64,000 nt of DNA from a virus (lineage: Duplodnaviria; Heunggongvirae; Uroviricota; Caudoviricetes), in the IMG/VR virus record IMGVR_UViG_3300014204_000001, positions 74,011 to 138,010 of that record. The stretch is one strand, 5' to 3'. The notes beneath the pieces are model-generated. The model saw only the letters and a program-made list of their open reading frames with translations, was not told the DNA's origin and did not search any database. Below are positions 47,084 through 63,543 of this stretch, in pieces (the stretch's first letter is position 1; every line of letters starts with the position of its first letter). The translations under genes were made by a program, and so were the position numbers.

Positions 47084-49054
47084 TTACTCAATAGCGCACA
47101 GGGACGAGCAACCGTCGCCAGCTGCGAGATTGCCGTCATCGCACGCTTCGCCAGACTCCATATTACCGTTGCCACATCCAGGCACTAATGCGCTATAGCC
47201 CAGAATCTCGGCATTGGTTCGCGCTATATTAGAGACACGGATAGAGTCAAGAGACGCGCGAAGGTAAGAACCTCCACCGCCAGATTTCTTGGCGCCGATG
47301 TTATTGAATATCAAAGTGCCGTCAGTAGCCGTGTTTGCGCTGGCAGCTGATACTCCTGATGCTACGCCATCGATAAAGTATTCAACTAGCCACGTTGCCC
47401 CAGAGCGACTTTTCCTAACGGCAAAGTGATGCCAAGCACCGCTAGGTATGACATTAGTAGAGGTGGCTATGCTTACATTGGCGCCTGTTCCATATTCCCA
47501 AAACGCACTCAACTTCCCACTAGACAGGTTAAGCAGGATTGTTGAGTTAGCGGCAAGCGTCTCTCCATCGCCGCCATTTTCCAAGATTGTGCCTGTGGCC
47601 AGATCTAGCTCAGGCTTAATGAACCCCTCGATAGTCCAGGCATCGGTGACGAATGTATGCCACAACCCTGTGCTATCAGCAGAAGTGAAATAGTAATTGC
47701 CGAGATCGGTGCTCATTGAGCGCCCGCCACCCAGTTTACCGACAACAGATCCGGGCTGTGACGAAAACGCGAGTACATCATAGGATCCAGCAGAATCGAG
47801 CGCAGTTCCTGTTGATTCGTCTAAAGCCCAAAAAGCAATTGTGTTTGCATCAATTACTGATGCAGCTGGTACCTCAACGACACAAATCGCGGAACAACCA
47901 TCATCGCCTGTAAGGTTGCTGTCGTCACACTCTTCGCCATAGGTAATGATTCCGTCACCACAGGCAGGTACGTAGATCCCGTTATAGGCGTAAACTTCGT
48001 CATAGTAGCCAACGAAAGATTGACCATAAACTGCAGAACCGATCTGAAACTTATTACTAGCATAAACCACAGGTACGCCTGTTTGAGTACAGGTTGTTGT
48101 TGCAACCTGTACACCGTTTAGCCATGCGGAGAAAACGCGGCCAGTAGCGTCATAGTTAAACTGTACGTTGTGCCAAATCCCCGCAGTTAATAGGTGACTC
48201 GGTCCTGCGTCGAGGTAACAGTGCCCGTCTGTAAAGGATATCCGTGCTTTCCAATAATTCACGCCCAAATCGTCAAAGTACATGTGAAAAGAAGTTTCGC
48301 TATTATTAGGGTCGCCGACCAGGAACGCTTTTGCGTATTTGATCTGGGTACCTGTCGGGTTCAACCAGCCGCCAACGCTAAATGATCCGCTCGCAGTGGG
48401 GTAAAACGAAGTACCACTAGTAAGTGCATAACCTGTTGGGTTTTCTACTGCCCGACTGAATTTTCCGGGTTGATTCGCAATAACAGCAGCGCTACCACCG
48501 GTAGTATACGTGCCCCCTAACAACCCCGTATTTGTAAAGGGATACGTCGTCTCGTTCAAAGAGAGGTATACAAGCGTCATTGTTTCGGTAGTACAAGTTG
48601 CGCTACAACCATCACCGTTTGAAGTATTTCCGTCGTCACACTCTTCAGCCCCGGCCTGCACACTATCGCCGCAAGTGGTTGTACAAGCTGACGGTGTACC
48701 AGAACATTGGTACCCTGCTTCAACTGCGCAGGCTTCGGTACAGCCATCGGCTGCAATCACATTGCTATCGTCACAACCCTCAAGACCCGCAGGCACGCCA
48801 TCACCGCACGTTGTCGCGCAAACAGAAGGCCACCCTGCACACTGGTAGCCGGCCTCTACCAGACAATCCAGGCAGCCATCGCCGCCAGCGATAGTGCGGT
48901 CGTCGCACTCTTCAGATGGAGCTGCGCGACCGTCACCACAGACCATCAGCTGAGGTGCTGTGCGTGCACAGGTACGCACACGCGTGCGTGTTGAGGCGTT
49001 AGCACTGCCTGTGATCACCAACAGTGCGAAGAAGATGACGGCGAAACGGCGCAT
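47084..49054 (-). CDS. secreted protein with tandem Cys-rich repeats (CGDG...CDDGN...GDGC) and a large Trp/Tyr/Gly-rich lectin-like domain (656 aa)
   Basis: signal peptide MRRFAVIFFALLVITGSANA; at least 5 copies of the ~40-aa Cys-rich repeat of the type called Myxococcus cysteine-rich repeat. Confidence 0.6.
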   Translation of the reverse strand: MRRFAVIFFALLVITGSANASTRTRVRTCARTAPQLMVCGDGRAAPSEECDDRTIAGGDGCLDCLVEAGYQCAGWPSVCATTCGDGVPAGLEGCDDSNVIAADGCTEACAVEAGYQCSGTPSACTTTCGDSVQAGAEECDDGNTSNGDGCSATCTTETMTLVYLSLNETTYPFTNTGLLGGTYTTGGSAAVIANQPGKFSRAVENPTGYALTSGTSFYPTASGSFSVGGWLNPTGTQIKYAKAFLVGDPNNSETSFHMYFDDLGVNYWKARISFTDGHCYLDAGPSHLLTAGIWHNVQFNYDATGRVFSAWLNGVQVATTTCTQTGVPVVYASNKFQIGSAVYGQSFVGYYDEVYAYNGIYVPACGDGIITYGEECDDSNLTGDDGCSAICVVEVPAASVIDANTIAFWALDESTGTALDSAGSYDVLAFSSQPGSVVGKLGGGRSMSTDLGNYYFTSADSTGLWHTFVTDAWTIEGFIKPELDLATGTILENGGDGETLAANSTILLNLSSGKLSAFWEYGTGANVSIATSTNVIPSGAWHHFAVRKSRSGATWLVEYFIDGVASGVSAASANTATDGTLIFNNIGAKKSGGGGSYLRASLDSIRVSNIARTNAEILGYSALVPGCGNGNMESGEACDDGNLAAGDGCSSLCAIE

Positions 49055-50256: not shown

Positions 50257-51222
50257 CTACACCAGGCTGACACTGACCAGCGCACTGACCCCGCTGTACG
50301 TAGTGAGTTCGAGGATCGCAGTCTCCGTATCAGAGCTGGTGACCGTGAACCCGTAGCTCCCATCTGCACCAGTAGCGAGAAATAGTGGACCAGTCGTGCC
50401 ATTATTGAGCTGCGCAACGCCAGGGGCAACAGCCGCCAGCGTCACCGATTTTGTGGCGGCAGCGAAGGCCTTGATTCCCACCAGGCAGGCCGCGGTCTCC
50501 GGTTGATTCTGGCCATCGACCATCATGCCCGTAAAGGTGGCTACGACGGTACCCCCTGTGAGGTTCGTGGCGACGAAGGCGTCTCCAGCGATCAGGGTAG
50601 CAGCCTCGTCCGCAGCATCCAGACTATCTGCCTGGACCACGACGGCGCCTGCCAAGGCGTTGACGGCATCCCGAACTGCCCCCAGGGTCGTATTATCGGC
50701 CAGATACTCGATGGTCAGCAGGTCTCCCACGAGGGTCACGCCAAGCGCACCGGCAGAGGTCAGGGCAACCTGAAGATCATTGCCCTCGATGCCACCAGCA
50801 GCAGCCTCGAGCACCATCCTGAAGCTCGAGGTGGCCGCCTTGGACGCCTTGGTGCTGGTGCAAACTGGGAGGCTGAACGCGGCCCGAATGATGTTAGCCG
50901 TCAGGGTGTTCGTGCTCGACTGGACCTCAGCCAAAGCGCCTTCAACGGTGTTCGTGCTCGACTTGACCTCAGCCAAAGCGCCTTCAACGGTAGTCGCCGT
51001 GAGGATGTTGGCCGCATCCTCGACGCCAACAAGCGCGGCGCCGCTAGCGCCCGCGGCGACACTGGCGAGCATTACCTTGGAGACCTCAGCAGACTCGCCA
51101 GATTCCAGGGTAGCAACGCTGTCAGAGATGTCCAGGAGCATACGAGCGTGCATTTCGCCAGCCTGCGCGACGTGACCAAGCATGCTACGTTGAGCGGCGG
51201 TAGTGCGCGTGAACGTGACCAT
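50257..51222 (-). CDS. Ala-rich virion protein (321 aa) with internal 42-bp tandem duplication
   Basis: TVEGALAEV(K/Q)SSTNT twice from 50906-50989; lies just downstream of capsid-sized gene (decoration or fibre candidate). Confidence 0.5.
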   Translation of the reverse strand: MVTFTRTTAAQRSMLGHVAQAGEMHARMLLDISDSVATLESGESAEVSKVMLASVAAGASGAALVGVEDAANILTATTVEGALAEVKSSTNTVEGALAEVQSSTNTLTANIIRAAFSLPVCTSTKASKAATSSFRMVLEAAAGGIEGNDLQVALTSAGALGVTLVGDLLTIEYLADNTTLGAVRDAVNALAGAVVVQADSLDAADEAATLIAGDAFVATNLTGGTVVATFTGMMVDGQNQPETAACLVGIKAFAAATKSVTLAAVAPGVAQLNNGTTGPLFLATGADGSYGFTVTSSDTETAILELTTYSGVSALVSVSLV

Positions 51223-51308
51223 GTTGTGTCTCCTTTCCGGAGTGTGAAACGGGGCGCCCCCTTACACAGAAGGCGCCCCTGGGATTACGGCGTTGTTATC
51301 ATGAGGCG

Positions 51309-52229
51309 TTACGCCATCGCGGTAAGGTCGAGCACCTGGAAGGACTGGCGATTGCCGATGCCGATGCCCGGCGCTGCGTAGGTCCAGAAGGTGATCAGGT
51401 CAGCCTCCTGCTTGATGTACAGGGTGGCATCCTGAAGCAGGAAGAAGTTGCCCAGGTAGTTTTCCGGGGCGTAGATGTAGACCTTCTTCGGATCGTGGAC
51501 ATGGGACTTGATGGTCGTGATGACCGGAATGCCCCAGAGCTTCTCCTCCTGCTCCACACCGTCCTCGTAGTGGCGAGAAGCCACATCATTGCCGACGACG
51601 GTAGCCGGGAGGTCGATAGCCTCGTAGTACAGCGACTTGGTCATGGTCATCTTGCCGATGGGGCGGCGTCGATTGACCATTGCCTGGAAACCCTTCTTAA
51701 ACACAGTGCTCGAGAAGGAGTTGTCCGCGGTAATCTGAGTAGGATTGGCCGCAGCGATCATGTCGATGGTCTGCTGCCACTTCAGATCTTCCTGGTCGGC
51801 CATGTCCTTGACCGCGTTGTCCGAGAGCATCTTCCTGATGTCGTTCTGGTACGTCATCAGTTGGAACTTGCTCTTGGTGAAGTGCTGCGACTCGGTCTTA
51901 CCGAAGTAGACCGAGTAGCGAGGGCCCTTGAACCAGGTCCGCGAGCCAGCACCCTGGAACTGGACGAAGGTGGCCACCGAGTTCGGCTCCTTCTCGATGA
52001 TCTTCTTCGGCTCGTCCGTGTTCTCGTCGCGGTCAATCTCGTCGTCGGTCAACAGCACCGGAGCGAGGATCTCACGAGCATACGACTCCTGGCGGACGTG
52101 TTCGCGGATGAACGCGCTACCTTCCGCCTGGGCTTCCTTGACTCGCCCGTCCTCGATCTTCTTAATGAAGTTCGCATTGACGAACTGAGCGCTGACCTGT
52201 TGCGTCTCGGTCTTGTACGACATGTTCAA
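51309..52229 (-). CDS. putative major capsid protein (306 aa; position-based)
   Basis: size and position downstream of scaffold-like gene; no motif verified. Confidence 0.35.
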   Translation of the reverse strand: MNMSYKTETQQVSAQFVNANFIKKIEDGRVKEAQAEGSAFIREHVRQESYAREILAPVLLTDDEIDRDENTDEPKKIIEKEPNSVATFVQFQGAGSRTWFKGPRYSVYFGKTESQHFTKSKFQLMTYQNDIRKMLSDNAVKDMADQEDLKWQQTIDMIAAANPTQITADNSFSSTVFKKGFQAMVNRRRPIGKMTMTKSLYYEAIDLPATVVGNDVASRHYEDGVEQEEKLWGIPVITTIKSHVHDPKKVYIYAPENYLGNFFLLQDATLYIKQEADLITFWTYAAPGIGIGNRQSFQVLDLTAMA

Positions 52230-52360
52230 GCTCCTTCAGAACGCGTTATCCTGATCATAGGACATTGCGGTTAGGGGAACAACGTGCCTCGTTTTTCAGT
52301 TCAGTCTTTCAGTGCTTCGCTGTTCCCCGCACCGACTGAGCAGGTTCGCTTAGCTACTTC

Positions 52361-52861
52361 TTAGACGCCGCAGCCCTGGGGAACGATGACCTGCACCACG
52401 TTACTGACCGTGTTACCGCCGTTCGGACCGACGAAGCCGAGGATCTGCTCGCCTTCGATTGCGAGGCGAATCTTACCCGCGTCGAAGGTGACCGGCAGGC
52501 CCGCAGTGAAGCCGCCAATGGCGCCATCGAACTGATCGGTCTCCATCGTGAAGCCACCATGCAGCACGGTGAGCTTCTTGACGAACGCGCCGGAATAGTC
52601 CGTGTCGCCATCAATGACCACGAAGGCCAGCTGGCGATTCAGCGCAACGGTGGTTGCGTCGGCAGCAGTGGTCGCAAGTGCGGCCTTACCATTCGCGGGA
52701 TTGATGGTGACGATGGCACCAGCAGGAATATCACCAGCGACCGGGGTACCATTGACACCCAGAGTCATACCGGTAGGAGATTCGAGGACCTGAGCCAACG
52801 CAGCGAGCGCGAGCGGATTGTCCACCGAGACGATGTCGAACTTCGAGTTCAGCAGAGACAT
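52361..52861 (-). CDS. hypothetical virion protein (166 aa)
   Basis: ORF track. Confidence 0.45.
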   Translation of the reverse strand: MSLLNSKFDIVSVDNPLALAALAQVLESPTGMTLGVNGTPVAGDIPAGAIVTINPANGKAALATTAADATTVALNRQLAFVVIDGDTDYSGAFVKKLTVLHGGFTMETDQFDGAIGGFTAGLPVTFDAGKIRLAIEGEQILGFVGPNGGNTVSNVVQVIVPQGCGV

Positions 52862-52892
52862 GATTTACCTCTCTTGTCGCCTCACGGCGCGC

Positions 52893-53258
52893 TTAGGAAT
52901 TAACGATGTAGTTGCCGAAGTTGTCCCAGGCGGCTTGTGCCCGCTCCTGCTTTGTCCTCGGCACCTGGCTTGCCGACTTGTCGCTGGAGTGACCCATGCT
53001 CTCCACGGCATTTTCGACCTTCTTATCGAGAAGGCATTGCACCGCGGCCAGGACGCCGTCATCAGACGACGCGAGCTTGTTGAGCAGGTCCTCAGGCAGA
53101 TCCTCCCCCGTGGCCTCAGCAAACTTCGCTGCGACATTGTGGGCCGCGCCCTCACGCTCCTTTTTGAGAGCCGCAGTCTTCTCGGCCTCATGCGCGTCAA
53201 GAGTCGCAGCTGCGGCCTCGAGGACTTCAGCAACCTTGAGCAGGAACTCAGCAGACAT
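52893..53258 (-). CDS. hypothetical helical protein (~121 aa)
   Basis: start MSAEFLLKVAEV with 8-nt overlap. Confidence 0.45.
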   Translation of the reverse strand: MSAEFLLKVAEVLEAAAATLDAHEAEKTAALKKEREGAAHNVAAKFAEATGEDLPEDLLNKLASSDDGVLAAVQCLLDKKVENAVESMGHSSDKSASQVPRTKQERAQAAWDNFGNYIVNS

Positions 53259-53400
53259 GATTACGCACCTTCTCGCGAAGCATGGCCAGGGCTGTGGCCG
53301 CCTTGATGGTTTGAGCGCACTTGACCATTGATTCGTGCTCAACCTTGGCCGCCGTTTCGCGGAGCTCGGCGGCAATCTTTCGAAGATTTTCAGACGCCAT
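53248..53400 (-). CDS. hypothetical small helical protein (~50 aa)
   Basis: MASENLRKIAAELRETAAK; start overlaps upstream stop. Confidence 0.35.
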   Translation of the reverse strand: MASENLRKIAAELRETAAKVEHESMVKCAQTIKAATALAMLREKVRNHVC

Positions 53401-53617
53401 AGTGCTCTCGAAACTTGTGGAGATCAGCGTAACTGATCTGGTTGTCCTTTGCAGCTTCACGAACATCTTCGGCAACCTTCAACATCTGCTGCCCAAGCTG
53501 CGTCTTGAGCTTATCGTTTCTGATATAGGATAGGTTCGCGGATTTCACCAACTCGTCATTCTCGATACGCTCGAGAAGTTCATCTGCGAGTTGGGCGATG
53601 GAATTCTTGCACGCCAT
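53390..53617 (-). CDS. hypothetical small protein (~75 aa)
   Basis: TGATG overlap start MACKNSIAQL. Confidence 0.45.
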   Translation of the reverse strand: MACKNSIAQLADELLERIENDELVKSANLSYIRNDKLKTQLGQQMLKVAEDVREAAKDNQISYADLHKFREHYGV

Positions 53618-53879
53618 CACAGACCTCCACGATGCAGGCTGTGCCCGAAGTTGAGGCCCTCGGTCCACGCCTGAACTTTGCCCGCATCTTCTTGGGCCTG
53701 GTGGTGCGAGCCAAGAGCATAACCACCTGTGCCCACCGTTGCCGCAGCAATAGCGGAAGCGACCAGTGGGTGCTCGCTAGCCGCGTTGATCAGTACCTGG
53801 CTGATGCGCCCTGGAAGGTGGGCCGCAGCAGTCTTGTACATCTCTGCGTAGGTAGCTCTGATCTCAGCGTCGTACATCG
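53617..53879 (-). CDS. hypothetical protein (~86 aa)
   Basis: GAGGT RBS then ATG 53879. Confidence 0.45.
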
Positions 53880-53884
53880 TGACC

Positions 53885-54472
53885 TCAGGCCGACTTGCGG
53901 GCGCCCTCAAGGACCTGTGCACAAACAGAGGCACCCTTCAGGAATTCAAGGGCGGCAGTCTTGTGGATGGCGACGACGGTGTCGTTGTAGCCAGCCACGT
54001 AGTTGTCCTCGGCCATCTTCTCGAGACCTGCTCGGTTGATGGGGTAGCCAGCGGTGCTGGCCTCCTTGATGATAGCCGGGTTCTCCGCGGCGAACTTGTC
54101 GAACTCAGGATCACCTGTGGCGATCTTCTCGATGGTAGGCAGCGCGGCGGCGGTCTTGCGCCACTCCTCGAGCCGCGCAACGACGGTGTCGGCGAAAGCG
54201 GCGCCCATAACCTGCGCCTGCTTCACCATGGCCTCGTTCTCGGTCTTGGCCATGTCCGCGGCGAGTTTCATGACGTCGTTGACCGGGTTAGCCACAGGTG
54301 CCTCAGCCGCAGTCTTCTGGGTGGAAGGGGCAGCAGCGAGAGCCTCGTTCATCGCATTGACGAGCGGGTTCGTCACCTCAGACTTGGCAGCAGGGGTGGA
54401 AGCGGCCGATGCCGTCTTCTCGGAAGGCTTCTGGGTCTCACGGAGTCCCTGAAGAATGCGGTCGATCTTCAT
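53885..54472 (-). CDS. putative scaffolding protein (195 aa, Ala-rich helical)
   Basis: composition and position between intein-containing gene and capsid-sized gene. Confidence 0.4.
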   Translation of the reverse strand: MKIDRILQGLRETQKPSEKTASAASTPAAKSEVTNPLVNAMNEALAAAPSTQKTAAEAPVANPVNDVMKLAADMAKTENEAMVKQAQVMGAAFADTVVARLEEWRKTAAALPTIEKIATGDPEFDKFAAENPAIIKEASTAGYPINRAGLEKMAEDNYVAGYNDTVVAIHKTAALEFLKGASVCAQVLEGARKSA

Positions 54473-54533
54473 TTGCGGTACCTCACAGGTTGATGGAAGT
54501 GTAGGTGAGTCCTGGGATTAAGACAAACAGCGT

Positions 54534-57500
54534 TTATGTCAGCAGAAGCGTGCCGAGCTTGGTGGCAGCAGCGTCGAAATCAACGTTCGGCAGTTCCACG
54601 GAGTCGGTGACAGGCTCGAGCACATCACCGAGGTACTCAGACAACTTTAGAGCATTAGCTCCAAGTCCGTAAAGGCTTAGTCCCCCAAGCGTAGCGAATG
54701 CTGGGTGGTCATGGGCATATTGCTCGAGCGTGTCTGCCAAGCGCTGCGTAGTCGATGCGTTCGGGTCACCCACGAACTCGCCATTTCGCAGCCGCGACTC
54801 GTAGTCATGACCTAGTCCTGCTATGAGACCAGCGGTTCCTAGTACGGGGAGGGCTGCGCGAGTCAGTTCGTTCGCAGTGCGAGTCATGCTGAGTTCAGTA
54901 GTCGCCGGAATGTTGACACCTTCCTCAGTGCCATACTGAGGCCCCCAGTCAGGGTTGAGCGTCTGTGATCCTAGCAGGGCCGCAGTGCCCGCAGCAACAG
55001 GGCGCAGTGCACCAGGGATGCCCGGAGCGAGGATCTTATAGCCACCAGCGAGCAATGCTGCGCCGCCCAGCGTCTTGGCCAGTTGTCTACGCGCGATCTC
55101 GTCGTGCGCCGCGATGGCTGCTCCGCGTGTGGTGGTGTAGCTTTGACCTGTAGATGGGTCGCGTACGTGGAAAGTATCGGTGAACGGTGCCTCTTCAGGT
55201 CGCAGCACCGGCGGGAGCAGCGCCCGCTGAAGGTAGTCGCCGAAGGTTGACCTCTTCTCGAGGTACTTCTCGGCCTTTCCTGCGATTTCCGGCTTGACGT
55301 TCTTGGCGTTGATGTCGAATAGGTGAGTCTGCATGACCTGATCGAGCAGCTGTGGGTGCTTGGCGAAGAGGTCAAATACCTGGCCCTGCATGGCGACGAG
55401 CGCGTCGAGCACCCCCTCATCCACCGAGGCGCCTGGGGCAAGCTTTGCCAACAGGAGCTTCACGAACTCGGGAGTAGTAAGGATGACGCCAGCTGCAGAG
55501 AGGGTGGACAACACCTCTGCTACCGGATGCTCGGCCAACGCGTTCAGCGTGGTGCTGTCCATCTGAGGCATACGCTGCAGCGCCGGCCGGATCGCCTGGT
55601 GATAACGCTGGATGTTGCGCTCCTCCGCCTCGCTGATCGGTGAGACTTTGTGGTCGAGCGGGATGCCACGCACGACCTTGTCAATGTCGGATACCTTTTG
55701 AATCGCCGCGCGCTTTTCCTCAACGGTGTCGAGGTAGGCACCGAGATCTGCAGAGGCGCGGACCTCGTAGGCTCCCTCGTGGGCGACTTTCTTTAGCATA
55801 AAACCAGTCTGATCTGCGGGCTTAACTACCCAGGAGATGTCGAACCATCGCGGGGATGGATTAAGTGCACCGTAACGGAGGCCTTTTTTGCCGACCTGAC
55901 GGAGATTGTACTTGAGGTGATCGCAGTACTGCGCGCGTGTCGGCGCTCTATGCCCACACTCAGTACAGACATCATACTTGATCCGGCAGTTGTGCACTGC
56001 TAGGTTGTGCAGCACATAACTGTTGTCATCGGCGACCTCAAAGTTGAAGACGAAGTCCGCGTACGGCTTGGTCTGGACCGACGCGATCTTGCTGACGGCG
56101 TACGTCGTTCCGCCAACCTCCCAGAAAAACCGATCACTCCGAATCGGGGCGCGCGAGCGCGCAAGTATGTGTCGTGAGGTGGTCAAGCGCCAAGCGTAAT
56201 CGTTGCCTACCCGCACCTGGTATTCGGTGGTGGGTTTGGTCACCAGACCTGATGGCTTGTGGTGAAGCGTGTGTACTGCGCCGAACATCTTGAGACGCAG
56301 TAGTGCGACTTGGAGTTGGTCGGCCAGCGCCTCGGAGGCTGTAGAGAAGTAGAGAGCGCCCTTGAACGCAAAGCCGTCTCCGTTGGCGTAGGCGCCGAGA
56401 AGCTCAGCTAGGATCTCCGGTTGTGCCCCGAGGACGCTGGCAGAGAGCAGTTTAGTACGGGCATGCTTGCCGCAGTGCTCTTCACAGAGGTCCACGAGAT
56501 GCGGCGCATTGACGTAGATGTACTTACCGTTGCGCTCGGGGCGGTCATCCTCCCAGACGGACCGTGCGCCAAGACGTGCGGCCAGCGTCTTGATCTCGGC
56601 GTGAGTGGCTGTCTCATGGAGACCTGTGCAGAAACAGACGCAACGTGTCGGGGCGTTGTTGTTGTTCGTCCAGGAGAACCCCTCGGCCAGATAGTACCCG
56701 AGGAAGCGCGCCTCGTCTCGGCTGAAGTTGCGTGATGGCTCGAATTGGGGGATCGGAGTAGCTAACCAATCACCCGCGTGGATCTCGTCAGTGCGAATCC
56801 ACTCGAATCGAGTGTTCGACGTATGCGCGCAATCCTCACAACCGCTGTAAGTAGCTTTCGACACGGGCGTGCACTGTGTTTGTCGTCGCCCCTGGTTGCA
56901 GGGGTTGCCACCACAGGACATCGACCCTGCGCGAATGGCCCAGAGGGGGTGCTCTCCTGTGAGTGTGAGCGGTTTGCGGTACCCCTTCACCCGAATAGTG
57001 AAGATCTCCCCGTCGTGGTGCCGCGTCATCGTCCCAGTGACCCGCTTGCGCAGGCCGCGGTGCGTAATGACCGTGTCGCCCTCACGAACTTCTGCGACAT
57101 CACGGTACCGACCGTCAGCCATCAGAACGTGTGCGCCACGAGGCGAACAACCCATCGAGACAGCGGGGTAGTCACCATCGGCGATGCGCTCTACAAGATC
57201 AGGGGCCAGGTCGTTCCTAACGCCGATCAGGAGCTCAACCCGGTGCATCGTCGGATTCCAGAATGACTTGAGAACGTCGCCACACGCCTTGGCAGGGTCC
57301 TTGTTCTGGTGGTGCCGGTAAACCTTCCCCATCGTCTCGAAGGTCTTGTAGTGGTTTTGGACGACGTCTGCCTGGCTAATCCAGCCATCGTCTGCTGTGC
57401 AACAGCCACACGTAGGCTTGAACCCGACCTTGTACGGCGACTCGTTAAAGCCATCGCCGTTTCGGTTCAGGTCATAGAACTCGTACGATCCCAGCGCTAA

Positions 57501-57680
57501 CACCAAGACGATGGTGTGCCCTGGCTTGGGCTCCACGCACTTGACGTAGTCGCCTGCCTCGCTGGCGGTCTTGGTGTTGCCTAACTCGCGTAGTGGGCGG
57601 CTATTGGCACCCCAGAGGAGTACCGGTCGCACGGTAGACTCCCCGCCAAGAGTGTCGTCTAGTTGGATTACCTTGCGCAA
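54534..57680 (-). CDS. intein-containing head-morphogenesis-region protein (1048 aa; extein ~660 aa of unknown function, possibly prohead protease or core protein by position)
   Basis: TTG start with GAGG RBS; intein residues ~178-564 (nt ~55989-57149): starts CSPRGAHVLMADG, two LAGLIDADG blocks (LGYYLAEGFS, LLGAYANGDGFAF), ends SYVLHNLAVHN followed by Cys. Confidence 0.6.
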   Translation of the reverse strand: MRKVIQLDDTLGGESTVRPVLLWGANSRPLRELGNTKTASEAGDYVKCVEPKPGHTIVLVLALGSYEFYDLNRNGDGFNESPYKVGFKPTCGCCTADDGWISQADVVQNHYKTFETMGKVYRHHQNKDPAKACGDVLKSFWNPTMHRVELLIGVRNDLAPDLVERIADGDYPAVSMGCSPRGAHVLMADGRYRDVAEVREGDTVITHRGLRKRVTGTMTRHHDGEIFTIRVKGYRKPLTLTGEHPLWAIRAGSMSCGGNPCNQGRRQTQCTPVSKATYSGCEDCAHTSNTRFEWIRTDEIHAGDWLATPIPQFEPSRNFSRDEARFLGYYLAEGFSWTNNNNAPTRCVCFCTGLHETATHAEIKTLAARLGARSVWEDDRPERNGKYIYVNAPHLVDLCEEHCGKHARTKLLSASVLGAQPEILAELLGAYANGDGFAFKGALYFSTASEALADQLQVALLRLKMFGAVHTLHHKPSGLVTKPTTEYQVRVGNDYAWRLTTSRHILARSRAPIRSDRFFWEVGGTTYAVSKIASVQTKPYADFVFNFEVADDNSYVLHNLAVHNCRIKYDVCTECGHRAPTRAQYCDHLKYNLRQVGKKGLRYGALNPSPRWFDISWVVKPADQTGFMLKKVAHEGAYEVRASADLGAYLDTVEEKRAAIQKVSDIDKVVRGIPLDHKVSPISEAEERNIQRYHQAIRPALQRMPQMDSTTLNALAEHPVAEVLSTLSAAGVILTTPEFVKLLLAKLAPGASVDEGVLDALVAMQGQVFDLFAKHPQLLDQVMQTHLFDINAKNVKPEIAGKAEKYLEKRSTFGDYLQRALLPPVLRPEEAPFTDTFHVRDPSTGQSYTTTRGAAIAAHDEIARRQLAKTLGGAALLAGGYKILAPGIPGALRPVAAGTAALLGSQTLNPDWGPQYGTEEGVNIPATTELSMTRTANELTRAALPVLGTAGLIAGLGHDYESRLRNGEFVGDPNASTTQRLADTLEQYAHDHPAFATLGGLSLYGLGANALKLSEYLGDVLEPVTDSVELPNVDFDAAATKLGTLLLT

Positions 57681-57696
57681 GACGCTGCCTCGTTCC

Positions 57697-58146
57697 TTAG
57701 TCCAGCAGGTGGCGCATCACGTCGACCATGTACTCCCGGCCGAGGAGCTGCGTCAAGCGAGCCTTTGCGAAGTCGTTGCCAGCGAGCTTTGTCAGCTGCT
57801 CGCTAAGCACCTCGTCAGCGTAAACAGCGCAGGCCAGCTTCTGCAGATTGGCGGCGACGTCATCGTTCGACGCGGCCAGCTTCTCTCCGGTAGCCGCGTG
57901 CGTATCGCGCAGGGAAAGCGCGAGTTTTACCATCGACGTCATGCTTGCTTCTTTACCCCGTAAATCGACTTGCGGAAACTGCTCCTGCGCCAACTTCAGC
58001 GCACAATTCACGATCCTGTCGCAGAGTTTGGCGCACTCATGTGTGCTGATTGCGGCGGCTTCGGCGTCGGCAATGGACGCGATTTTCTCGAGATCTGCGT
58101 CAGCCTTTAGCGCAGTCCAGAGCTCGACGTAAGCCGGGTTTATCAC
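57697..58146 (-). CDS. hypothetical helical protein (149 aa)
   Basis: ATGA overlap with upstream gene. Confidence 0.5.
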   Translation of the reverse strand: MINPAYVELWTALKADADLEKIASIADAEAAAISTHECAKLCDRIVNCALKLAQEQFPQVDLRGKEASMTSMVKLALSLRDTHAATGEKLAASNDDVAANLQKLACAVYADEVLSEQLTKLAGNDFAKARLTQLLGREYMVDVMRHLLD

Positions 58147-58349
58147 TGGAGCTCCTTCAGCGCGTTGAGTCCACCCCTGATCGCCTGCTGCTCAAGCATC
58201 GCTAGGGCAAGCTTCTCGCCAAGTACCTGGAAGACGGCGTGCTTGTCTTCGAAATCGACGCCATAGACAGCCCCAGCCACCTTGTGAAACGGGTGGGCCA
58301 GGAGAGCCTGCTTGATATCTTCGGGAATCTTGAAAGTCTTCTCGTCCAT
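58143..58349 (-). CDS. hypothetical small protein (68 aa)
   Basis: AAGGACTGAG RBS. Confidence 0.45.
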   Translation of the reverse strand: MDEKTFKIPEDIKQALLAHPFHKVAGAVYGVDFEDKHAVFQVLGEKLALAMLEQQAIRGGLNALKELQ

Positions 58350-58352
58350 GGC

Positions 58353-59273
58353 TCAGTCCTTGTGGCCGTGATAGCCAGAAAGAGACCGCTCGGTCTCGAT
58401 GAGATTCTTGATTGTGGCGTAGTTGACGCCCGAACCACCGAGGACAGCCTCGCGAAGAAAGGAGCGTGCCGCGTTGATATCGGTAGAGAGTTTCGGCGCG
58501 AAGCGCGTCATCGTACCGTAGGCCTCCATCACGATTTCGTGCCCGTGGGGATTGCGATTCACAGCATCAGAGATAACAGGGTCATTGCGCATCAACGTCT
58601 CGACCATCGCCAGCCGCTTTGGATTCGTGACCACAGCATCACGGATACCCCCAAGGAGTTTTCCTAGGCCGCTGAAGATGCCGTTGGCGACACCCATACC
58701 GACACCCTGGCTGATGCCGCCCGTGAAGCTGTCGATAGTCTTGGTACCGAGGTCTTGCGGGATGTTGTAGAACCTGCCCTTCACGCTACCGGACACACCA
58801 GGCCCGTTGAACGGGAGATCACCTTGACCCTGGAAAGCCTTCTTCTCGAGGAACTCATCCAGACTAGCGGTAATGACACGACTAGGATCTCGGTTCATGG
58901 CCATGAGCTCTTTCTCGAAGCCTTGCTGTGTCTCGTTAAACGCACCCCAAAGTATAGGCGCTACGGCGGCTGTTCCGACACCCAATCGCATGAGCCCAGG
59001 GTGCTTTCTGAAGTAGGTTCCGACATGACCCATAGCACGCAGTGCGCCATTGCCCGCGGGGGCCAAGATCTTGTTTGCGACGTTCCCTGCGGCGCTAAGG
59101 GCCTTTGGAATCATCTCGGCTGCGTTTTGGGCCCCTGAAAGAATGCTGCCGCCGCGACGAATGTTCCGCGCGACGCGCTGCGGAGCCTGGTGCGCCACGT
59201 CCTCGGGATTGTAAGGCCAGGCCACCTTCTTGAAGGCCTCCTTGACCCAGGCATCGAAAATTGGGTTGCTCAT
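58353..59273 (-). CDS. hypothetical virion-module protein (306 aa, Gly-rich)
   Basis: TAAGGAGCGAGG RBS. Confidence 0.55.
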   Translation of the reverse strand: MSNPIFDAWVKEAFKKVAWPYNPEDVAHQAPQRVARNIRRGGSILSGAQNAAEMIPKALSAAGNVANKILAPAGNGALRAMGHVGTYFRKHPGLMRLGVGTAAVAPILWGAFNETQQGFEKELMAMNRDPSRVITASLDEFLEKKAFQGQGDLPFNGPGVSGSVKGRFYNIPQDLGTKTIDSFTGGISQGVGMGVANGIFSGLGKLLGGIRDAVVTNPKRLAMVETLMRNDPVISDAVNRNPHGHEIVMEAYGTMTRFAPKLSTDINAARSFLREAVLGGSGVNYATIKNLIETERSLSGYHGHKD

Positions 59274-59283
59274 GCCTCGCTCC

Positions 59284-60084
59284 TTACACCAGCGACTTCA
59301 AGGTCTCGAGGCCGTTCCCGAACTTGACGTAAGCATGCCGAGCTTCGACAGCTTCCTTCAGAAGTGCCAGCTCCGCGGTGCCGTCGGTAACACGCCGATC
59401 CTGAAGCAAGGCAACCTTCTCGTTCGTTAGCGGGCTGTAGGTACCGCTCGAGCGCATATTCTCCCAGAGCTGCGTAAGCTCCGGCAGAACATCCTGCCCG
59501 AATTCCGCGTATGCGTCCTTCTCAAACTCCTCGAACTTGGGGCCGTATCCCGGGGCCCGGCGGAACACCTTTGCCAGTGCGGCGATCTTCTCTTCCCAGC
59601 GCCGTCCAGCAGAGAACCGTTCGATCTCGAAGTTCTCCGCGAGCTTGCGCCCTGCGATGAGGGCCAGATCGTGGCGCAGGGGGCGCTCCACGACAGGCTC
59701 GAACTCGCCAGCGGTCTTCTCGACGTCGAACACTCCGCCAAGGCGCTTCTCGCGCATGAGATCTGGGATCTCACTAGCTAGCTTGTCATTCTCGATGTTG
59801 GCCGATTGTGGCACGGTGTTGGCCTCCACGGCGAACTTGCGGATGATTTGCTCAGGGTCGCCAACGTCGAACTCGACCATCTTGTCGCCATCATTCTTCC
59901 GTTGGAAGACTTCCTGGAACGTGGCGACGTTGGATAGCCGCACCAACGTGCGGATCTCTTCCGGGTTAAGCGAATGATCCTGTGCCACCTTCATGGCGAG
60001 GTCATTGATACTCTTCTTCGATGTGACGTGTTGCGCCGCAATCTCCTTCGCGCGCGTCACGAACATAGACTCATCCCAGGACAT
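59284..60084 (-). CDS. hypothetical virion-module protein (266 aa)
   Basis: GAGGAG RBS. Confidence 0.55.
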   Translation of the reverse strand: MSWDESMFVTRAKEIAAQHVTSKKSINDLAMKVAQDHSLNPEEIRTLVRLSNVATFQEVFQRKNDGDKMVEFDVGDPEQIIRKFAVEANTVPQSANIENDKLASEIPDLMREKRLGGVFDVEKTAGEFEPVVERPLRHDLALIAGRKLAENFEIERFSAGRRWEEKIAALAKVFRRAPGYGPKFEEFEKDAYAEFGQDVLPELTQLWENMRSSGTYSPLTNEKVALLQDRRVTDGTAELALLKEAVEARHAYVKFGNGLETLKSLV

Positions 60085-60094
60085 CGGACTCTCC

Positions 60095-60787
60095 TCAGTG
60101 CAAGATCTCGGTCACAGGAACCGGAGCTTCGGCGATTTTCAGCGACTCATCTTTGGCTTCGAGAGCGATGCGGAGCTCGTCCACGGCGTTCTGTGCTGTA
60201 TGCGGGTCAATCTTCTCGAGGCTTTCAGCGTTTCGAATGGCAGTGGACCACCACTTCAAAGCCTCCTTGGCGACGTTGCTAGTCAAGGCGTTGCCTTTGT
60301 GGGCCATGCCGCGGAAATACGCATCGAGCATCGTTCTGCGGATGACGTGCCGCGTATCCAACTGACCGTTGCCGTTGCCATAAGCCCAGAGCAGGTAGTC
60401 CAAGCCTACCGTAACAGCAGCGCGCACGAGCTCTTTTCCATACGCCGAGCTCTCGTAGTGTGTGGCGTAGGTGATAAGCTCCAGCTTGTTTCGGAACACT
60501 GACACATCCATGAAGAGTTGCATGTAAGTTTCTAGGACGTGTGCAGGGATGTCCAGGGTGCTCGCGATGATATCGAGTGGGGTCCGTGCGAGCAGGAAGG
60601 CGTCGATGACGGGTCGGTGTTCCTCGTTCTCGTGCAGATCGGATGCGTAGGCAACAGCCTCAACGAGGCAAGGCTGCCCCGAGAGCCGCGCGAACAGCGC
60701 AACCTCGAGAGCGTCGGTCGGAGCGGGACTGCCGCTCGCGACCAACGCTTGCATGGCGAGAAACCGGTGATCGGGCGGTTCCAGCAC
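60095..60787 (-). CDS. hypothetical virion-module protein (230 aa)
   Basis: CAGGAG RBS then GTG. Confidence 0.5.
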   Translation of the reverse strand: MLEPPDHRFLAMQALVASGSPAPTDALEVALFARLSGQPCLVEAVAYASDLHENEEHRPVIDAFLLARTPLDIIASTLDIPAHVLETYMQLFMDVSVFRNKLELITYATHYESSAYGKELVRAAVTVGLDYLLWAYGNGNGQLDTRHVIRRTMLDAYFRGMAHKGNALTSNVAKEALKWWSTAIRNAESLEKIDPHTAQNAVDELRIALEAKDESLKIAEAPVPVTEILH

Positions 60788-60790
60788 TAG

Positions 60791-63454
60791 TTACTCCTGT
60801 CCAACAAGTTCGTTCGGACCGCGAATGACCAGCGACTGCTGGTTGATCTTCAGGATCAGGTCACCCAAACCCTTGAACACGCTTCGAAGGTTGTCTTCGA
60901 TGGAGATGAAGGTTTCGTTGCCGATGTCACCCTTGATGTTCGCCTCGTCCATCCAGAGCGACAGTAGCACGCGACCGACATTGTCCAAGGACTTCTCGAG
61001 GTTGGGCAGGTACGCGGCCACAAGGTCCTTGAGCGATGGGGACTGGGCCATGGACGCGAGCGACGCTGCATCGAATACGCCCGCGTCATTGAGCTGCCCA
61101 GCCTGTTCCACGAAGCTCGGATTGACCTGGCCCATCAGGTTTTCGACAGTACCGTCGTCCGACGACATCATCGCCTGCGGCTGCTGCTCCATGCCCTGCT
61201 GCGTCATCGCCGCGTTGGGATCCATGCCCATCGGGCCCATGTTCTGTTGCGGGGCCGCAGCGCCCATGACAGGGCTTTGCCCCTGAACCGGCGGCGCACC
61301 CTGCATTGGGGTCAGCTGTTGTTGCATGCCCGGCTGCATGCCCGGCTGCTGCCCACCCATCATCGACGGGTCCACAGGCTGCCCTGCACCCATCATTGAC
61401 GGGTCCATCGGGCCACCCATGGCAGCGGCGGCGGCAGCAGGGTTGCCCGCAGCACCGCCGCCTGTGGCAATCTGCTGGGTACGAGACTGGATGTTGTTGA
61501 GCAGCTGCATCTGCTGCTGAAGCGCCGTCATCTGGCCCTGGATGTTCTGCATCTGCTCGGCCACGGCCATATCAACGGGCTGCGGCTGGGCAGCTGCCTG
61601 AGCCATTGCCATCTGGTCCATCGCGGCCTGGGCCGGATCTTGGCCTGCGGGGTCGCCACCGTTGGGATCCTTCTTCTTCGAAGGCGGCTTGCTATCCCCT
61701 TCGGCAACCTTCAGGCGTGCAGCGACCTTCTCGAGCTTCTCCGGCGAGAGAACGAAGAACTCGCACTTGCCCTCAGCCTCCGCGGTCTTCATTGCCGCCT
61801 CAGCGTCCTCGACCGACAGGCCCTTCTCGAAGGCGAGTTTCTTCAGACCGTCAACGAAGCTGTAGGGCTTTCGCTCGATCACGAAGGACGAGTCGTAGTA
61901 GGGCTTGTGGACTACCACACGCTCGGCGGCCTCCTTCTCGAGGGCATCCATCGTCCAGTTGAGAATATCCTTCGGATTCGAGAAGAAGTCGCTCGCAGCA
62001 ACCTCTCCCTTGGCCGAAAGGAAGACGAAGTCGGCGGGGAGGTAGACGACGTTGCTGCTCTCAGGAACAACGAGCTTGCTGAGCGATGACTTTGGGTCGA
62101 GAATCAGCGTCTTCTTGCCGCCGCTTCCGAAGACCTCGAACAGCTTTCTCCCCTCAGACTCGGTGACCGAGTCGATGTGGAGTGGCGTGGTCGCGACAAA
62201 CGACGCGCCACGGCGCTGGACGAAGATGCCGAACTGATCCTTGCGCGGCCCCTTAGCGACAGTATCCGTCACGGTCGCCTTGTAGACCTTCGAGCCTTCG
62301 AGTTGGCTCAGGGCCACCTGCTGTCCGAGGAGGTGACTGGCATCAAGCAGTCTGCCATCTTCGGTAATGCCGACGTAGCGATCCGCGTGCTGCGGAGGTG
62401 ATGTATTGTCGCCTCGCGCGAGAACATCTTGTTGCTTCTTCACGCGCACGTTTCGCGGAGGGATCCGCTTTCCGCGGCCGCAGCCGAAGACATCGATAGG
62501 GTTACCGATGATCAGTGCAAGGGTCGGCTTGCCATCAACACCCCACAGTTTGTACGCGCCCGAGTCCTTCGGCTCCTGGAGGTCCTTGTACGTCTGGACC
62601 TTGATCGGACGGTTGACCGTCTTGCGGTCGTCCTTGGCGTAGTAGCCCTTAAGCGCGACACCTTGGAATGCAAGGGGTGCCTTCGGTCCGAAGATGTCCT
62701 TGAACTCGCCTGGAGTGGTCGACTTGTCAGCGACGTAAAGCGCCCCGCCCTTCAGCGGAACCTTGCCTCCGTAGTCGGCCAGTTTCAGCGCGTCAAAGAG
62801 GGCATCCTTACCGTAGTGGTGTACCGCGAGCTTGAGCAGGCCGTCGTTTTCCTCGTAGAGTCGTGCAGCCGCGATCTTCACGACATTCGGAGCATGCGAG
62901 AGGAAGTGGAGGTACAGTTGCTTAGGCTCTTGCTGATCTCGTGCCTCGTCAAAGACGCAGCCAGCCAGCTTCACCGCGAGGGTGCTGCGCTCCTCTTCCG
63001 ACGCGTAGCTGTAACGGCCTGTTGTAGGCGGGACAACGGTATTGCGGATGTCGACGTCAGTGGCCATCGTCTCTGGAAGCTTCGCGCCCTGACCCATATC
63101 GGAGAGCGAGAGCTTGTCGAGCTCCTCGAGCCACTCCTTGGTAAGTGGAAGGAAGACGTTAAGGTCTTTGTAGTAGAGAATGTCGAGCGGCTTTACCTGA
63201 TTCTCGGCCATGACGACTGGGATGTAGATCGTCTGGCCTCGTCGCATGACGACGAAGGCGCCGATGCCCGAGCCCGCTTCGGGATCGCTGTCTAGAATCT
63301 TGAAGGTGATAACGTCTTGGCTGACACTAGGCAGCTTGGTGATCAGAACCGAGTAGGCGACTTGCGAGAGTCCTTGGTCGAATAGCTGCTTGGCTTGATC
63401 ACCAGTCGGGGACTGGGTTGCCATCGCTTGGGTCCGGGGAGACATAGTAGGCAT
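60791..63454 (-). CDS. portal-sized protein (887 aa) with Q/M/P/G-rich low-complexity C-terminal region
   Basis: ATG 63454 after AGGAG RBS; C-terminal third PQPVDMAVAEQMQNIQGQMTALQQQMQ...DPSMMGAGQPVDPSMMGGQQPGMQPGMQQQ. Confidence 0.5.
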   Translation of the reverse strand: MPTMSPRTQAMATQSPTGDQAKQLFDQGLSQVAYSVLITKLPSVSQDVITFKILDSDPEAGSGIGAFVVMRRGQTIYIPVVMAENQVKPLDILYYKDLNVFLPLTKEWLEELDKLSLSDMGQGAKLPETMATDVDIRNTVVPPTTGRYSYASEEERSTLAVKLAGCVFDEARDQQEPKQLYLHFLSHAPNVVKIAAARLYEENDGLLKLAVHHYGKDALFDALKLADYGGKVPLKGGALYVADKSTTPGEFKDIFGPKAPLAFQGVALKGYYAKDDRKTVNRPIKVQTYKDLQEPKDSGAYKLWGVDGKPTLALIIGNPIDVFGCGRGKRIPPRNVRVKKQQDVLARGDNTSPPQHADRYVGITEDGRLLDASHLLGQQVALSQLEGSKVYKATVTDTVAKGPRKDQFGIFVQRRGASFVATTPLHIDSVTESEGRKLFEVFGSGGKKTLILDPKSSLSKLVVPESSNVVYLPADFVFLSAKGEVAASDFFSNPKDILNWTMDALEKEAAERVVVHKPYYDSSFVIERKPYSFVDGLKKLAFEKGLSVEDAEAAMKTAEAEGKCEFFVLSPEKLEKVAARLKVAEGDSKPPSKKKDPNGGDPAGQDPAQAAMDQMAMAQAAAQPQPVDMAVAEQMQNIQGQMTALQQQMQLLNNIQSRTQQIATGGGAAGNPAAAAAAMGGPMDPSMMGAGQPVDPSMMGGQQPGMQPGMQQQLTPMQGAPPVQGQSPVMGAAAPQQNMGPMGMDPNAAMTQQGMEQQPQAMMSSDDGTVENLMGQVNPSFVEQAGQLNDAGVFDAASLASMAQSPSLKDLVAAYLPNLEKSLDNVGRVLLSLWMDEANIKGDIGNETFISIEDNLRSVFKGLGDLILKINQQSLVIRGPNELVGQE

Positions 63455-63543
63455 CGAAATCACTCCTGTGGCCTAAGTGTAGGCGGTTTCCCTCAAGCCG
63501 CTTAGGCTTGTTGTATCAGGTAAGGCGCCGACTTGTGTAGATC

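Follow-up and report, generated by a model that had tools for sequence, protein, structure and literature searches.

A predicted class 1 LAGLIDADG intein beside the likely nucleophilic serine of a probable phage prohead protease

Phage inteins have been described in TerL, portal, primase, helicase, methylase, ribonucleotide reductase (RNR), and ThyX proteins of mycobacteriophages and other phages, and all the mycobacteriophage intein hosts in the surveyed set bind nucleic acid (Kelley et al. 2016, PMC5050341). These elements are mobile, sit at active-site motifs of essential phage proteins, and occupy several sites per protein family with site-specific lineages. The intein analyzed here appears to share all of these features, but its host, unlike the nucleic-acid-binding hosts of that survey, is a predicted protease. 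It lies in a 64,000-nucleotide stretch of a Caudoviricetes virus (positions 74,011 to 138,010 of IMG/VR record IMGVR_UViG_3300014204_000001), hereafter the window, within an open reading frame (ORF) of the head gene module. We consider it very probable that this ORF encodes a 115-kDa precursor of a prohead serine protease with the gp21/assemblin fold, interrupted between Gly177 and Cys565 by a class 1 intein with a LAGLIDADG endonuclease.

Both partners have well-described counterparts. On the intein side these are PI-SceI (yeast VMA1), TliVMA, PI-PkoII, and PI-PfuI, which, like the window's intein, consist of a Hint domain split around a two-motif LAGLIDADG domain, and which share with it Cys1, TxxH, the terminal His-Asn, and Cys+1 at only 10 to 17% sequence identity. 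Their hosts are V-ATPase, polymerase, or RNR, in contrast to the prohead protease of the window, and the subgroup to which the window's intein belongs differs from them by having a loop rich in Cys that separates block B from the endonuclease domain. On the host side the closest described proteins are T4 gp21 (MEROPS S77; PDB 5jbl) and herpesvirus assemblin (S21), although the window's family has no detectable Pfam S77, S78, or S21 membership. Compared with T4 gp21, which contains no intein, the family adds two inserts, one of the CCCH zinc type behind the Ser motif and one containing Cys ahead of the His motif, as well as a C-terminal extension of ~400 amino acids. Another intein inside a serine protease is that of the Chlamydomonas eugametos chloroplast ClpP (Wang and Liu 1997, cited in PMC5050341); going by that citation, the fold (ClpP) is unrelated and the host organellar.

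The original prediction, made from the sequence alone, had proposed a LAGLIDADG homing-endonuclease intein inside a 1,048-amino-acid head-module ORF (nt 54534 to 57680), spanning residues 178 to 564 (nt 55989 to 57149), opening with a Hint A block, containing two LAGLIDADG motifs, and ending in ...SYVLHNLAVHN followed by Cys. Our analysis bears this out, exact to the residue. The ORF is on the minus strand, the insert opens with CSPRGAHVLMADG at residue 178 and closes with the proposed ending at residue 564, Cys565 comes next, and the two motifs are LGYYLAEG (residues 327 to 334) and LGAYANGDG (residues 428 to 436). Boundaries, blocks, motifs, fold, and the gap seen in orthologues all agree (the features are listed in Table 1).

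Four observations indicate that the insert is an intein and not a chance resemblance. Pfam LAGLIDADG_3 matched it with 28.9 bits (gathering score, 22.5), and the PDB chain 2cw7 (PI-PkoII) did so with an E value of 4e-6 in three colinear pieces, the N-terminal Hint, the endonuclease, and the C-terminal Hint. More than 100 orthologues lack exactly residues 178 to 564, among them P0002 and P0003 (77% and 76% identical, respectively); the intein-free orthologues read ...DYPAVSMG-CRIKYDVCTECGH... uninterrupted, the junction being ...PAVSMG|CRIKYDV.... An AlphaFold2 model of the insert (predicted local distance difference test [pLDDT], 86.6; predicted template modeling score, 0.85) had PI-SceI (E 1.5e-18), the TliVMA intein (template modeling score, 0.67), PI-PkoII, and PI-PfuI as its top Foldseek matches in the PDB, with E values of 1e-18 to 1e-13, consistent with a Hint fold; the free-standing LAGLIDADG enzymes I-DmoI and I-Tsp061I ranked next and matched the central domain. 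We conclude from this that the insert is a canonical class 1 intein whose predicted LAGLIDADG endonuclease is monomeric and has two motifs. In the profile search for canonical intein blocks, whose absence was to refute the original prediction, the endonuclease part was recovered above the cutoff, whereas Intein_splicing, Hom_end_hint, and Vint remained below theirs, yet were placed at both ends of the insert, where the Hint blocks are expected.

The orthologues came from a search with the in silico spliced extein as the query, by which 761 relatives were found, of which the best 120 were nearly all 646 to 713 amino acids long, covered 100% of the 661-residue query, and were at most 77% identical to it. 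When the same query was run by tblastn on 50,697 phage genomes, 228 records were hit, each at one place; all of the 30 matches listed were in one piece, and the better ones crossed the junction. Full-length relatives of the intein itself are found in cultured phages in tRNA synthetase, DNA methyltransferases, RNR alpha, and TerL. By megablast, the 14 kb of DNA surrounding the gene had no match in the 50,697 phage records, and an intein-only query of a 5.8-billion-protein index returned a single one (a SufB intein, 28% identical) while missing the intein's own cluster, so that this search is uninformative on distribution.

The sub-threshold scores of Intein_splicing and the Hint-type Pfam families would also fit an insert that does not splice, be it a retained Hint/endonuclease-like domain, a cleaving-only domain of the bacterial-intein-like type, or an assembly chimera. 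We regard this as hardly credible. All the splicing residues are canonical, the boundaries coincide with the exact gap in the orthologues, and orthologous inteins at the same site are present on independent contigs from other samples. The same gene is also found on a 179,300-bp ENA/Logan contig and a 179,282-bp JGI contig (with a shorter gene call in the latter), which may be assemblies of one genome. Moreover, the insert splits the core strand beside the nucleophile, where a retained domain is unlikely to be tolerated.

Public gene calls disagree on the start of the precursor gene. The JGI call P0001 (1,032 amino acids) uses a GTG located 16 codons downstream of the TTG (57633 to 57680, minus strand), while a second public call, P0268 (1,048 amino acids), agrees with the TTG, which has a GAGG-type ribosome-binding site upstream. 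The N terminus encoded from the TTG, MRKVIQLD, is common to the orthologues (MRKVIxLD), and this conservation supports the TTG as the preferable start. With extein flanks of 177 and 484 residues, the predicted spliced product comprises 661 amino acids (71.8 kDa) and the predicted excised intein 387 (43.2 kDa). The 64-kb window has a single intein of this kind and a single protease gene.

As to what the intein interrupts, the original prediction had left the extein unassigned, noting its location at the T4 gp21 protease position and suggesting that the exteins be spliced in silico and searched. Both leads proved right. Upon splicing, the E value of the match to PHROG 18299 (head maturation protease) went from 4e-3 to 8e-9 and that to PHROG 2774 from 7e-4 to 4e-10, the alignments now crossing the junction, and the neighbors found among predicted viral structures were in agreement. 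To obtain a structure, the intein-free orthologue P0002 (77% identical) was modeled from a 44-sequence alignment as a stand-in for the extein. Its N-terminal domain (residues 50 to 230; pLDDT, 80 to 91) matched, in a Foldseek search of the viral structure database BFVD, phage G gp19, proteins of phiRSL1 and PaBG, and many prohead protease/COG3740 entries. As modeled, these matches settle the fold of the extein N domain as that of assemblin and T4 gp21 (MEROPS clan SH). Rhodococcus phage E3 gp77, a homologue found by tblastn, is itself annotated as a prohead protease.

The sequence motifs are in keeping with such a fold. In 130 of 130 diverse intein-free N domains, H124, N126, E149, S175, C185, C188, C199, S229, and A235 are invariant, and N72, N74, and D76 are nearly so. 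T4 gp21 presents its motifs in like order (NRN at positions 51 to 53, His85, and VS140S), with a His-to-Ser spacing of 55 residues versus 51 between His124 and Ser175. From the structural model, the sequence motifs, and the gene context together, we conclude with high probability that the extein is the prohead protease of the window's phage, with the gp21/assemblin fold. This gives a function to a large family (4,250 clusters at 50% identity with E <=1e-3; 1,423 with E <=1e-30) that has no Pfam or NCBIfam model and whose members in cultured phages (Arash, D69, phage G, and cluster C mycobacteriophages among them) are mostly labeled "hypothetical" or "structural."

A protein of protease descent that had lost its activity and now serves as a scaffold or internal head protein would be compatible with the lack of matches to curated protease profiles, with the large share of the protein (~400 of 661 residues) taken up by a helical C-terminal region of no known function, and with the homologue in Salmonella phage Arash being labeled simply "structural protein." We think this improbable, however, given that His124 and Ser175 are retained in 130/130 diverse homologues at a gp21-like spacing (51 versus 55), that the inteins target exactly the His and Ser motifs, and that no further protease candidate was found among the head-module genes scanned. 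Gly/Ala-rich hydrophobic stretches in the C-terminal region resembled transmembrane helices but reach only 1.2 to 1.5 on a 19-residue Kyte-Doolittle window, and no membrane segment is proposed.

A CxxC...CxH motif lies 7 residues past the splice junction (Table 1). Its three Cys are present in 130/130 homologues and its His in 126/130, it gives a weak Zn_Ribbon_1 match, and T4 gp21 has no counterpart of it. It is probably a zinc-binding insert of the protease domain. In relatives, two of its Cys take the +1 position of inteins at other sites.

The junction falls between Gly177 and Cys565, in the motif V-S175-M-G|C, two residues past Ser175, and the P0002 model puts it inside the core beta-strand formed by residues 173 to 179. 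The +1 Cys is native to the protease, a Cys being present there in 108/130 intein-free homologues. For splicing, Cys178 would perform the N-S acyl shift, the N-extein would be handed over to Cys565, and Asn564 would cyclize with the assistance of His563, freeing the 43-kDa intein. An S-N shift would then yield the 661-residue (72-kDa) protease, reading ...DYPAVSMG-CRIKYDV... with the predicted junction peptide IADGDYPAVSMGCR. Only this spliced product would possess an intact active site (His124 plus Ser175) and the adjacent CCCH zinc-type motif, for which reason capsid maturation is expected to depend on splicing. An insertion of 387 residues so close to the probable nucleophile (two residues away) should leave the precursor without activity, and proteolysis would then have to wait for splicing.

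This raises the question of whether splicing could be more than a step that the phage has to tolerate, i.e., a built-in delay or conditional switch of capsid maturation as opposed to mere parasitism. By interrupting the Ser175 strand, the intein would make the precursor an inactive zymogen; with the +1 Cys 7 residues from the CCCH motif, the rate of activation could follow redox state or zinc, and the protease would stay off until the procapsid is built. We give this idea little credence. The locus would be a natural setting for capsid maturation that has to wait for splicing, with mini-, full-length, and double-intein alleles to compare.

Such alleles emerged from a survey of relatives, into which 266 family proteins were taken. 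At least 34 inteins are distributed over four sites (designated a to d; Table 1) within ~75 residues of the protease, the window's intein occupying site b. Some proteins are doubly interrupted: P0171, P0173, and P0177 carry inteins at sites a and b, and P0172 combines a mini-intein at b with a full intein at c, leaving only seven extein residues between them (CKIPYDV). The concentration of four sites in so short a stretch and the alleles with two inteins support the view that this prohead protease family is a hotspot for inteins that has not been described before. Because the sites lie at His124, Ser175, and the CCCH motif, the inteins in effect flag which residues of the protein are functional.

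The inteins cluster by site and not by host, with identities of 50 to 65% in a, 43 to 65% in the main b group, and 30 to 36% in c. Nearest to the window's intein are those of P0072 (53%) and P0076 (50%). The inteins of P0161 and P0171 share 49% identity with it, but their exteins reach only 39 to 42%; conversely, the extein of P0085 is 54% identical to that of the window and its intein only 33%. Every relative with an extein identity of 59 to 77% is intein-free. This incongruence between intein and extein sequences is as expected from homing between divergent phages, although repeated loss would also be compatible with it. The Cys-rich loop follows the same subgroup, 4 or 5 Cys being kept in the inteins of P0072, P0076, P0161, and P0171 while the loop is missing from the other site b inteins. 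It is modeled with low confidence (pLDDT, 40 to 46; disordered) and may be a metal-binding module for DNA recognition.

For homing, the freed intein would act as a monomeric endonuclease that cuts intein-free alleles at ...GTCTCGATGGGT|TGCCG... in mixed infections, and repair of the cut allele would copy the intein gene in. A candidate target is at hand in the intein-free allele L004, which matches the window's gene at 17 consecutive nt across the insertion point (GTCTCGATGGGT|TGCCG) and, in the surrounding region, at 73 of 90 nt, its site reading ...CCCGCCGTCTCGATGGGTTGCCGCATCAAGTAC... and ...GCCTACCCCGCCGTCTCGATGGGTTGCCGCATCAAGTACGACGTC.... From this sequence conservation, it is plausible that the DNA at the insertion point is the recognition site. 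Endonuclease and conserved target together could mark gene flow among these ~180-kb phages. The intein-bearing alleles are so far metagenomic, with no split gene among the 30 cultured-phage matches listed (228 records, one place each).

Whether the window's copy still homes is a separate matter. It may splice but be homing-dead, kept because imprecise loss would destroy an essential protease. The closest related intein is only 53% identical, the codon composition of the intein fully matches that of the host gene, all relatives 59 to 77% identical in the extein are intein-free, and the same-site mini-intein of P0197, which has no endonuclease, shows that the decay stage of a homing cycle occurs in the family. 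The G+C content at third codon positions (GC3) is 0.70 in the intein and 0.68 in the extein, an equality showing that the intein has not come in recently from a genome of different composition. Set against a dead endonuclease are the predicted catalytic residues Glu333 and Asp435 and the active-site Lys, which is invariant among the 32 related inteins, all of them intact in the window's intein; a confidently modeled endonuclease domain; and the intein/extein incongruence, which points to transfer between divergent phages. We see the loss of homing as a possible but less likely explanation.

A number of points weigh against the overall reading of the locus as a prohead protease precursor with such an intein. 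Splicing, DNA cleavage, and proteolysis are predictions drawn from sequences and structural models. The Pfam Intein_splicing (PF14890) score of 23.3 bits is under the gathering score of 35.8, which marks the intein as a divergent member; what is at issue here is the profile threshold, not the catalytic residues. On the protease side, no Pfam or NCBIfam protease model matched the spliced extein, five homologues, or 53 diverse relatives; in particular, Pfam Peptidase_S77, S78, and S21 gave nothing for the spliced extein at E <=10 or for the 53 relatives at E <=0.01, and searching PDB sequences with an extein-family profile brought up nothing but noise. The hhalign comparison of the family with T4 gp21 pairs PAVS175M with PGVS140S and NRNGD with NRNKR in colinear order but is statistically insignificant (probability, 1 to 4%). 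The correspondence of His124/Ser175 with gp21 His85/Ser140 is proposed from fold, invariance, and spacing, and the invariant Glu149 and Asn126 are candidates for the third catalytic residue. Finally, the GC3 match and a nearest relative at 53% identity mark the intein as an old resident, and its endonuclease may be inactive by now.

While the proposed mechanism is that of a textbook class 1 intein with LAGLIDADG homing, the host protein appears to be new. Among 8 million open-access papers and preprints, a collection with incomplete coverage, none was found to describe an intein inside a prohead, head-maturation, or capsid-maturation protease. We know of no link between the ClpP intein and capsid assembly. 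The "hypothetical protein" that hosts an intein in the C1 phages (Alice gp247, at ~149 kb) was considered as a possible equivalent of the window's protease and discarded as a different gene, the C1 protease homologue being located at ~45 kb. With this locus, an enzyme of virion assembly joins the known intein hosts, and a hotspot in a protease breaks the pattern of phage inteins in nucleic-acid-binding proteins.

Table 1. Features of the protease precursor gene, its intein, and the surrounding head module, with the intein sites found in relatives (coordinates are those of the window)
Feature	Coordinates	Strand	Particulars
Precursor gene, predicted prohead protease interrupted by intein	54534..57680	-	1,048 amino acids, 115.1 kDa; TTG start
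N-extein, residues 1-177	57150..57680	-	First part of protease domain: NRNGDGF (residues 72-78), RHH with invariant His124, VSMG with invariant Ser175
Intein, residues 178-564 (387 amino acids)	55989..57149	-	Class 1, with embedded two-motif LAGLIDADG endonuclease
Intein block A, CSPRGAHVLMADG	57111..57149	-	Cys178, predicted first nucleophile; Cys1 in 32/32 related inteins
Intein block B, TGEHP (TxxH: Thr241-Gly-Glu-His244)	56946..56960	-	Thr and His kept in 32/32 related inteins
Cys-rich loop (5 Cys), intein residues 76-108	56826..56924	-	Between block B and endonuclease domain
LAGLIDADG motif 1, LGYYLAEG	56679..56702	-	Glu333, predicted catalytic acid; E in 24/32, G invariant; PI-PkoII alignment
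LAGLIDADG motif 2, LGAYANGDG	56373..56399	-	Asp435, predicted catalytic acid; Asp-Gly in 32/32; Pfam LAGLIDADG_3 above gathering score
Intein blocks F and G, VFNFEVADDNSYVLHNLAVHN	55989..56051	-	Ending in His563-Asn564; His-Asn in 32/32 related inteins
C-extein, residues 565-1048 plus stop codon	54534..55988	-	Starts at Cys565 (+1 nucleophile); rest of protease domain, then mostly helical C-terminal region of ~400 amino acids
CxxC...CxH motif, CTECGHRAPTRAQYCDH	55917..55967	-	Residues 572-588 of precursor, 7 residues past splice junction
Conserved protease-domain strand, DISWVVKPAD	55812..55841	-	Ser, Ala, and Val invariant or nearly so; weak hhalign pairing with T4 gp21 VDAVWGPSAP
Intein site a			Directly after R-H-H124; +1 Cys in place of the usual Val, Ile, or Gln; 9 representatives
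Intein site b (window's)			After VSMG; ~18 representatives, including a 157-amino-acid mini-intein in P0197
Intein site c			After Y-D-V; +1 residue is first Cys of CxxC; 6 or 7 representatives
Intein site d			+1 residue is Cys199 of CxxC...CxH motif; 1 representative
Major capsid protein gene	51309..52229	-	306 amino acids, downstream in same module; matches Salmonella phage Arash gp226 (annotated major capsid protein) with E 1e-64 and 38% identity
Putative portal gene	60791..63463	-	890 amino acids, upstream in same module; synteny, weak similarity to Arash gp218 "structural protein" and a Vibrio phage D69 gene

The protease gene is embedded in a head module whose gene order, putative portal, protease, and major capsid protein, is common to Arash, D69, the intein-free relative L004, and the intein-bearing relative L010. 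The two extein parts align to adjoining stretches of Arash gp222, and the 890-amino-acid ORF together with ORFs of 230 and 266 amino acids matches Arash gp218 to gp220 and the D69 equivalents. The major capsid protein, which has no Pfam match, presumably serves the protease as substrate and as partner in assembly. The putative portal has neither a Pfam nor a PHROG match and is assigned by position only. Searches against PHROGs gave no match at E <=1e-3 for 10 head-module neighbors of the protease (50257 to 63463, minus strand), including the 195-amino-acid gene downstream of it that the original prediction had regarded as a scaffold candidate.

The putative portal includes a low-complexity stretch of ~190 residues rich in Gln, Met, Pro, Gly, and Ala (~61090 to 61665), with a local G+C content of up to 0.66. 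Next downstream of the capsid gene, a 321-amino-acid ORF (50257 to 51222, minus strand) contains a near-exact internal duplication, TVEGALAEVKSSTN / TVEGALAEVQSSTN, at ~50900 to 51000. Farther along (47084 to 49054, minus strand), a 656-amino-acid protein combines four DUF4215 Cys-rich repeats (E 1e-32) with a Laminin_G_3/concanavalin-like domain (E 2e-25). Its probable role is receptor binding at the tail, and the DUF4215 repeats may hint at the host group. No tRNA genes were found in the whole window. The nearest cultured relatives, Arash and Vibrio phage D69, are ~30 to 38% identical in protein sequence, indicative of a poorly charted phage lineage. In relatives (contigs L010, positions 1 to 455, and L002, positions 1 to 444), genes for pieces of a multisubunit RNA polymerase lie directly upstream of the head module; L010 has PF04998 (RNA_pol_Rpb1_5) there, and Salmonella phage Arash a gene labeled "RNA polymerase subunit beta." Because polymerase genes adjoin the head module in these sequences, the relatives' phages (~180 to 195 kb) probably encode a multisubunit RNA polymerase of their own.

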